Positions 1 to 2,141 of a stretch of 48,915 nucleotides of DNA are shown here, piece by piece. The translations under genes were made by a program, and so were the position numbers. The notes under the pieces are model-generated. The model was not told where the DNA came from. It worked only from the letters and a program-made list of their open reading frames with translations, and searched no databases. The stretch is from Escherichia coli. Lineage in GTDB: Bacteria; Pseudomonadota; Gammaproteobacteria; Enterobacterales; Enterobacteriaceae. Within the stretch, counting starts at the first letter, position 1. Each line of letters opens with the position of its first letter. The stretch lies in NCBI RefSeq assembly GCF_003334385.1, contig NZ_QOWN01000032.1. One strand, given 5' to 3'.

Positions 1-16
1 AACGCGAGGCATCGTC

Positions 17-1135
17 TTAACGAGGCACCGAGGCGTCGCATTCTTCAGATGGTTCAACCCTTAAGTTAGCGCTTATGGGAATGATCCCCGCTTCTTTGCG
101 GTTTTCTGGCGTATAGCCAATGCCGCGTTTCAGCATGTCGCCGTAATCGGGGCGCGTGATTTTCTCGCCGTTGATAACAATTTCGCCCTGTTCATACTCC
201 TCCAGCCCAACAATCGCCTTCAGCAATTCACTGCGCCCTGCCCCCAGCAGACCAGCAATGCCGAGCACTTCGCCACGACGTAGCGTAAAACTGATATCCT
301 CCAGCTTGGGCTTATGGCGTAACGCACGGACTTCCAGCACGGCCTGATCCACAATTTCCTGAGGGGCTACCGGCGCAATATCAACGTGATCGCGCCCGAG
401 CATCAGCGACACAATATGATGCGTGGAGGTGTTTTCGAGCATCACATCGCCCGCCACCTGACCATCGCGCATAACGGTGGCACAGGAGGCAATGCGGCGA
501 ATTTCTTCCATCCGGTGGCTGACATAAATCACCGCCACGCCCAGTGCCGACATCTTTTTCACCGCGCTGATCACCAGTTCAACTTCCGCACTCGCAAGCG
601 AACTGGTAGGTTCATCAAGAATGACCACGCGCGGCTCGCCCTTCATCACCCGCGCAATTTCCACCAGCTGCTTTTACGCCGGGCTTAGCGTTGAAACAAG
701 TTGTTCAGGACTAACGTCAACGCCCAGCGCCTGTAAGCAACGTTGGGCATCCTGCGCCATTTGCAGGTAATCAATCATGCCGTTGCGGCGGGGCCACTGA
801 CCGAGGCAGAGGTTTTCCGCCACTGTCAGCCCTTCCACCAGACTTAACTCCTGATAAACCGCGCGCACCCCCAGTTCAGCGGCACGGCGAGTCAGCGTAG
901 CTTCGTCACCTTCCAGTCGCGTCTCGCCAATCCAGATATCACCGCTATCCGGGCGTTCGCTGCCGGTAAGCATTCGAATGAGAGTCGATTTGCCCGCGCC
1001 GTTTTTACCTAACAGCGCACGAACTTCGCCTTTATTGAGCGTGAAGTTAACGTTATCCAGCGCAACGACGCCGGGATAACGCTTATTTCCTGCCACCACT
1101 TTTGCTACCGGGACTGCCTCTGTTGCCGTGAACAT
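17..1135 (-). pseudogene. yphE: Sugar-type ABC transporter ATP-binding protein (two nucleotide-binding domains), disrupted by an in-frame TAA at 674-676 and ending at TAA 17-19
   Basis: ORF track gives two same-frame minus ORFs (674..1135 and 17..664) separated by one stop. NBD1 Walker A GKNGAGKST, then VVILDEPTSSL Walker B and second Walker A GLLGAGRSEL. Position downstream of yphF matches the K-12 yphFED layout. Confidence 0.7.
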
Positions 1136-1157
1136 AGGGACCTCTGCGAATCAGCGA

Positions 1158-2141
1158 TTAGGGCAGACCATCAACGTGCGTTGCCAGCCACTGTTTACCG
1201 TCTTCCGTTTTGGTATAGAGATCGATAGGCACCTGAATCACTTTTTCACCGTCGGCTTGTTTATTGATAACCTTCAATGTTTGCGCGAAAACAGCATTGC
1301 CCATTTTCTTACCGGAAATATCCACTACCGCTTTCAGCACCTGATTGTTTTCCAGCTCCTGAGCAATTTCGGTTGTCATATCCGAACCGAAAACAGCAAT
1401 TTTTCCGGCCTGATTTTGATTACGTACCGCTTTTACCGCGCCGAGTGTCGCACCGCCCGATTCCCCCATAATGGCGTTGAGATCCGGCGTGGAGATAATT
1501 AGTTTTTCACCAACGGAAATCGCTTTATCTAAAACAGTCCCTTCCTGATTAGCGACAATTTGCGCGCCGGGAACGCGGGATTTTAAAACTTCTTCAAATC
1601 CTTTACGTCGCTGCACACAAACTTCAAAGGCTTCGCAATTGATGACGGCAATTTTCGGCTGGTCAATTTTATTGGCAATAAAATAATCAGCGGCAGCGTT
1701 ACCCAGTTTTTTACCAAATTCCAGCGGATCGCCGACCAGATACGCCGAGACATATTTATCGACCCCCTTTTGATTAATACAGGTGTTGTAGCAAATCACC
1801 GGAATGCCCGCTTCACTGGCGCGACGAACGGTACGGCTACTGCCATTTTCAGACACTGCCGATAAAATAATGGCATCGACATTACGCGCCACGAGGGTAT
1901 CAACAAAGGTACTTTCTTTCGAAATATCACCCTGGGCGTTAGTTTCTATTAACTGAACTTGTACTGAGGAATCTTTTGCCGCATCCTGAACGCCCTGACG
2001 CACTCCAGCGTAGTATCCCTGAGTATCAAGGTATATTGCGCCAATGGTCATTTCTTTTTCCGCAGCCCTGGCAAATAGTGCGCTACCTAATAGCGTAGCC
2101 ATTAATAATAGATTACGGGTTGTTCTCATTTTTGTAGGCAT
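1158..2141 (-). CDS. yphF: Periplasmic sugar-binding protein of an ABC transporter (327 aa)
   Basis: ORF track. N-terminal signal peptide MPTKMRTTRNLLLMATLLGSALFARA and periplasmic-binding-protein-like sequence; sits directly upstream of the ABC ATPase. Confidence 0.9.
   Translation of the reverse strand: MPTKMRTTRNLLLMATLLGSALFARAAEKEMTIGAIYLDTQGYYAGVRQGVQDAAKDSSVQVQLIETNAQGDISKESTFVDTLVARNVDAIILSAVSENGSSRTVRRASEAGIPVICYNTCINQKGVDKYVSAYLVGDPLEFGKKLGNAAADYFIANKIDQPKIAVINCEAFEVCVQRRKGFEEVLKSRVPGAQIVANQEGTVLDKAISVGEKLIISTPDLNAIMGESGGATLGAVKAVRNQNQAGKIAVFGSDMTTEIAQELENNQVLKAVVDISGKKMGNAVFAQTLKVINKQADGEKVIQVPIDLYTKTEDGKQWLATHVDGLP

Follow-up and report, generated by a model that had tools for sequence, protein, structure and literature searches.

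An ochre codon and an IS186/IS421 insertion in Escherichia coli yphE, a probable pseudogene of a sugar ABC importer operon

Introduction

The ATPase subunits of the CUT2-type sugar importers, AraG, XylG, AlsA, MglA, YtfR and RbsA, have a common two-domain architecture of about 500 amino acids, and YphE shares it. Intact YphE is a tandem-NBD importer ATPase of this type: CUT2 ATPase models match it from end to end with E-values of 1e-115 to 1e-136, and those for AraG, XylG, AlsA, MglA and RbsA cover residues 14-498. The YphE scores against the AraG, XylG, AlsA, MglA, YtfR and RbsA models lie between 378 and 456 bits, below all of their equivalog cut-offs (689-850 bits); with a best score of 455.6 bits, against a cut-off of 689 (AraG), the protein is not an equivalog of the characterised sugar ATPases. 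Scores so far below the equivalog cut-offs indicate that YphE is a paralogue.

In E. coli K-12 MG1655, yphE (b2547) is an intact gene of 1512 nucleotides encoding 503 residues, annotated as 'putative ABC transporter ATP-binding protein YphE'; the first-pass annotation of the DNA described here had correctly expected an intact gene of about 500 codons. The operon partners are yphF (Peripla_BP_4), which lies upstream, and the permease gene yphD (BPD_transp_2, PF02653), which lies downstream. Levels of YphF increase when cells grow on levoglucosan (PMC8753852), and a search of the literature on yphE and yphF found no functional study.

The subject of this report is the yphE gene at one end of a 48,915-nucleotide stretch of E. 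coli DNA, referred to throughout as the window. The locus is the same as in K-12 (yphH and yphGFEDCB beside glyA) and the two yphE alleles are one base apart. Whereas the K-12 gene is intact, the codon for Gln154 is a stop in the window and an insertion sequence (IS) follows codon 353. Judged from the sequence, yphE is here almost certainly a dead gene with two independent lesions, the C460T nonsense change and the IS, and would be a case of ordinary decay.

The ochre codon

A mechanical list of open reading frames (ORFs) contains two on the minus strand, 674..1135 (153 aa, starting with ATG) and 17..664 (215 aa, starting with GTG), which lie in one frame, both end coordinates being 1 mod 3. 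Between them are the TAA codon at 674-676 and then AAG CAG CTG (665-673). The first-pass annotation had described just such a pair, parted by TAA and three sense codons, and reading of the strand together with the ORF listing bears it out. Alignment with the intact yphE of strain YJ3, which is identical to the MG1655 allele, shows a single substitution, at window position 676, in addition to the IS. This base is nucleotide 460 of yphE and is changed from C to T on the coding strand (C460T, Q154*). Codon 154 is CAA in MG1655, YJ3, RM10410 and others. The earlier expectation that the wild-type codon would be a sense codon, for Gln or Asp, thus holds with Gln, and comparison with the K-12 reference allele identifies the one differing base, CAA to TAA, as a nonsense mutation. 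The coordinates of the features are collected in Table 1.

Deamination at a Dcm site was considered as the origin of C460T and rejected, since inspection of the sequence revealed no overlapping CCWGG site. A Chi sequence, GCTGGTGG, is located at 661..668 on the minus strand and starts 8 nucleotides downstream of the mutated base. Of the 15 Chi sites in the window, 12 are on the minus strand; the proximity is probably a coincidence, and Chi is not claimed as part of the lesion.

Table 1. Coordinates of the features of the yphE region, and positions at which the window differs from strain SCU-104.
Feature	Position	Strand	Remarks
End of the IS186/IS421 element; the window starts inside the element	1..76		Terminal inverted repeat ATAAGCGCTAACTTAAGGGTTG at 55-76
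Left copy of the 12-bp target-site duplication GGGATCATTCCC, yphE nt 1048-1059	77..88	-	
Untranslated yphE remnant (predicted), codons 155-353	77..673	-	Identical to the K-12 allele throughout
GTG taken as the start of the 17..664 ORF in the mechanical ORF list; internal Val158 codon	662..664	-	
Ochre codon TAA in place of CAA (Gln154) of yphE	674..676	-	No other base of the gene differs from the K-12 MG1655/YJ3 allele
yphE codons 1-153, sole part translatable from the native start	677..1135	-	From profile matches and motif coordinates
yphF, periplasmic binding protein of the same transporter, intact	1158..2141	-	WP_001142427.1
Substitutions relative to SCU-104	16041, 23053, 29694, 31423, 31979, 38098, 40743, 44870, 47087, 48588, 48710		

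Distribution of motifs between the two pieces

The Walker A motif of NBD1 (GKNGAGKST, residues 43-51, window 983-1009) is on the upstream piece, as claimed earlier. The Q-loop of NBD1 is also within codons 1-153, and the fragment ends at the LSPA of the signature motif. This signature, LSPAQ, comprises residues 150-154, with Gln154 as its fifth and last residue, and in a phmmer alignment it is paired with YSGGN, the ABCA3 NBD2 signature; the stop is accordingly inside a degenerate NBD1 signature, where the first-pass annotation had placed it. The downstream piece carries the Walker B motif of NBD1 (VVILDEPTS, residues 170-178, window 602-628), the H-loop, and the degenerate Walker A of NBD2 (GLLGAGRSE, residues 295-303, window 227-253). 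In the intact allele NBD2 also has the signature LSGGNQQK (residues 405-412) and the Walker B motif LLLDEPTRG (residues 426-434). Read from these sequences, YphE would have one degenerate composite site.

Homology past the stop stays in frame, residues 155-353 being identical to those of K-12 YphE. The view that homology runs unbroken through the downstream ORF is only partly upheld: VVILDEPTS and GLLGAGRSE are both present, but the yphE homology ends at window position 77, short of the end of the ORF. PF00005 (ABC_tran) is recorded on both parts of yphE. In the AraG model NF008442 (NCBIfam, 504 positions), the upstream piece matches positions 14-145 and the downstream piece positions 149-349, and the XylG, AlsA, MglA, RbsA and YtfR models (approximately 500 residues) are likewise matched at adjoining positions. 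Since both pieces fall on adjoining stretches of the same models, they represent one gene split by a stop codon rather than two chance ORFs.

Translation from the native start would end after 153 residues, before Walker B. The resulting fragment is predicted to keep Walker A and the Q-loop and to lose the signature glutamine, Walker B with its catalytic glutamate, the H-loop and all of NBD2. Lacking those parts, such an ABC ATPase fragment would neither hydrolyse ATP nor dimerise productively.

The IS186/IS421 insertion

The second lesion, which is absent from the earlier reading, is the truncation of yphE by an IS186/IS421 element (IS4 family) inserted after codon 353 (nt 1059); identity with yphE stops abruptly at the junction. 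Only the last 76 bp of the element fall within the window, and the final 19 residues (ISANLRVEPSEECDASVPR) of the 17..664 ORF are encoded by the IS. Window positions 1-1200 show 100% identity to the closest public record, E. coli SCU-104 (NZ_CP053284.1), both lesions included. The SCU-104 element is 1337 bp long, with 22-nucleotide identical inverted ends and a 12-bp duplication; the duplicated sequence, present in one copy in the intact gene, is found on both sides of the IS. The transposase (WP_001300563.1, 370 aa, PF01609) is intact and antisense to yphE. Beyond the element the 3′ part of yphE resumes, and yphD follows.

The insertion would take the canonical NBD2 signature and Walker B out of the reading frame. 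It would also part yphD from the operon promoter, and may thereby have a polar effect on yphD. Because the IS truncates yphE after codon 353, tests of read-through, searches for a suppressor and C-terminal tagging would be pointless in this strain.

SCU-104 belongs to phylogroup A, ST8125 (PMC11251922). Over the 48,915 bases the window differs from its record by 11 substitutions (Table 1), and so stems from a near relation of SCU-104 that has both lesions. Two of these, at 16041 and 38098, were checked by 41-mer searches; the window alleles at both are common in other phylogroups, and the lone genome that has both is GF43, a divergent strain. In a 22.8-kb similarity search, about 100% identity was reached by many phylogroup A genomes alike.

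The yphE lesion is already known from public annotation. NCBI PGAP lists the SCU-104 gene (HHJ22_RS18740 / HHJ22_RS18730) among the pseudogenes, with the remark "internal stop; incomplete; missing C-terminus", and places after it an IS421-family transposase and the 3′ remnant. The pseudogene F3052_RS05810 of strain N18-04097, annotated "internal stop", shares the TAA but, unlike the window, lacks the IS. The allele is also deposited as a "hypothetical protein" from E. coli KTE14 and other strains.

Occurrence of the nonsense allele and order of the lesions

The occurrence of the ochre allele was assessed with a 41-mer that has the mutated base at its centre; since Megablast requires an exact word of 28 bases, each match contains the T. 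Two of 5,426 complete E. coli genomes were matched, SCU-104 and N18-04097, the latter a Canadian human isolate that carries the TAA without the IS. A product of exactly these 153 residues is encoded on 219 contigs of a larger assembly collection, mostly without the IS, and its carriers include KTE14 (EOU57639.1), NCTC strains and gut metagenomes. Codon 154 was TAA in all nine further loci fetched from this collection. Among 24 contigs that were read, 21 had the TAA without the IS and 3 had both lesions. The first-pass suggestion that the lesion is specific to one strain is not borne out, since it is common to SCU-104, N18-04097 and these 219 contigs.

C460T is also found on other haplotypes. 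In GCA_965255195.1 it lies on a yphE that otherwise equals that of GPEC1405 and differs from K-12 by 28 SNPs; only 8 nucleotides separate C460T from the closest haplotype-specific SNP. A third haplotype, on a metagenome contig, is 41 SNPs from the K-12-like one. These occurrences reflect either recurrent mutation or very short-patch transfer.

The nonsense mutation probably arose first and the IS second. This order is favoured because contigs with the TAA alone far outnumber those with both lesions, because IS insertion at the yphE site is clearly frequent, and because the IS186 copy number is high in SCU-104. The reverse, in which the IS had already killed the gene when the nonsense mutation occurred, is a less likely order but one with evidence on its side. 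In RM10410 and strain C1 a K-12-like allele that lacks the TAA is interrupted by the IS in the same orientation. C1 in addition has Q316* (CAG to TAG) together with the IS, so nonsense mutations do build up after IS insertion, and C460T has itself arisen on, or been transferred to, at least one other haplotype. Against this stand the ratio of 21 to 3 among the contigs read and the recurrence of the IS in both orientations, which makes an independent IS hit in a TAA lineage the cheaper assumption. An alignment of 48.8 kb comprising the window, N18-04097, RM10410 and MG1655 has 27 variable columns and gives a star-like tree; in it the window shares the TAA alone with N18-04097 and no substitution with RM10410.

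It could be argued that the T at 676 is a sequencing or assembly error and that the true codon is CAA, in keeping with the rarity of the TAA among complete genomes. This is most improbable, however, since genomes from California and Canada that were sequenced independently have the same T, as do the NCTC strains and metagenome contigs, and a C-to-T change is a substitution rather than a homopolymer indel. The TAA is a genuine, rare and geographically widespread natural allele.

It is similarly hard to credit that yphE is a natural split gene, in which two polypeptides form a working ATPase or a downstream fragment is made by re-initiation. In strains with the TAA alone, gene callers do predict a downstream ORF of 340 or 346 aa, and a GTG occurs 9 nucleotides past the stop. 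However, the break is inside the NBD1 signature motif and not at the boundary of two domains; no Shine-Dalgarno-like sequence precedes the GTG, the upstream sequence reading GCGTAAAAGCAGCTG; and in the strain of the window the downstream part also lacks residues 354-503. At least 80% of a 1,200-base yphF-yphE query was matched in one piece in 5,404 of the 5,426 complete genomes. Orthologues that are naturally split at this point, which the earlier annotation had named as an argument against a lesion, were not found, and a single intact gene is the rule among these genomes. The 17..664 ORF is not a gene.

Least credible of all is a full-length protein produced by read-through of the ochre codon, whether through a suppressor tRNA or programmed recoding: the window contains no tRNA gene, TAA has no known recoding role in E. 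coli, the wild-type codon is plain CAA, and a ribosome reading through would enter the IS beyond codon 353 and stop 19 codons on.

Consequences for the Yph transporter

As discussed above, yphE appears to be inactivated by two lesions, and the YphDEF sugar ABC importer would be unable to work in this strain. The first-pass annotation had proposed that the nonsense change inactivates the transporter; the sequence supports this, and the gene is in fact broken twice. For annotators, the importer is predicted to be non-functional in this lineage.

Strain GF43 has a yphE nonsense change of its own, R73* (CGA to TGA). Several independent lesions in other strains make the Yph transporter appear dispensable in nature, and the operon appears, on sequence grounds, to be a dispensable accessory operon that is decaying repeatedly. 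It is conceivable, but improbable, that loss of the transporter has been repeatedly favoured in some E. coli lineages and not merely tolerated. The presence of C460T on at least two haplotypes, the C-to-T stops R73* and Q316*, and the sequence-specific IS186 hot spot in yphE, with a 12-bp target shared by the nupC terminator, would all fit such an idea. The data show recurrence, however, not selection, and in very large collections recurrent neutral hits are expected. We therefore regard the locus as ordinary decay of a dispensable accessory gene, with nothing new in kind.

Two further observations concern the same operon. Strain VL40 has an internal stop in yphG. In NCTC assemblies yphF is split or yphE is frameshifted, which could be due to assembly errors.

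The yphE site as an IS186 target

An IS at exactly this yphE site was found in 17 of the 5,426 complete genomes. In ten sampled carriers both orientations occur, five of each, and the 12-bp duplication is always the same. The reconstructed yphE backgrounds of the carriers are up to 39 SNPs apart and 0-38 SNPs from the K-12/YJ3 allele. Nucleotides 1048-1059 of yphE are thus demonstrably a recurrent IS186/IS421 hot spot. The IS186 end is matched at 22 places in SCU-104, whereas the median over the 5,426 genomes is 1 and the highest count 23; this suggests an expansion of IS186 in the SCU-104 lineage.

The duplicated 12-mer is identical to that around the IS186 copy in the nupC terminator, where the site, AAAAAAGCCGGGGATCATTCCCCGGCTTTTTT, occurs in at least 48 complete genomes. 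The yphE target consists of a G-rich segment, six bases and a C-rich segment (GGGG ATCATT CCC). The IS186 target consensus, reportedly described by SaiSree, Reddy and Gowrishankar in 2001, is said to be GGGG(N6/N7)CCCC, and the yphE site fits it. A literature search found no paper naming yphE together with IS186. As a well-defined natural IS186 target, the 12-mer in yphE (GGGATCATTCCC) could serve as a marker or as a substrate for tests of site specificity.

A close parallel is the IS186 hot spot at the lon promoter (SaiSree, Reddy and Gowrishankar 2001, J Bacteriol 183:6943, cited in PMC3045373 and PMC4618355). The same IS family is involved at both sites, and for yphE the insertion recurs at the exact site in both orientations. 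In contrast with the lon hot spot, which is at a promoter, that of yphE is inside a coding sequence. The yphE site is a new instance of known IS186 behaviour and entails no new mechanism.
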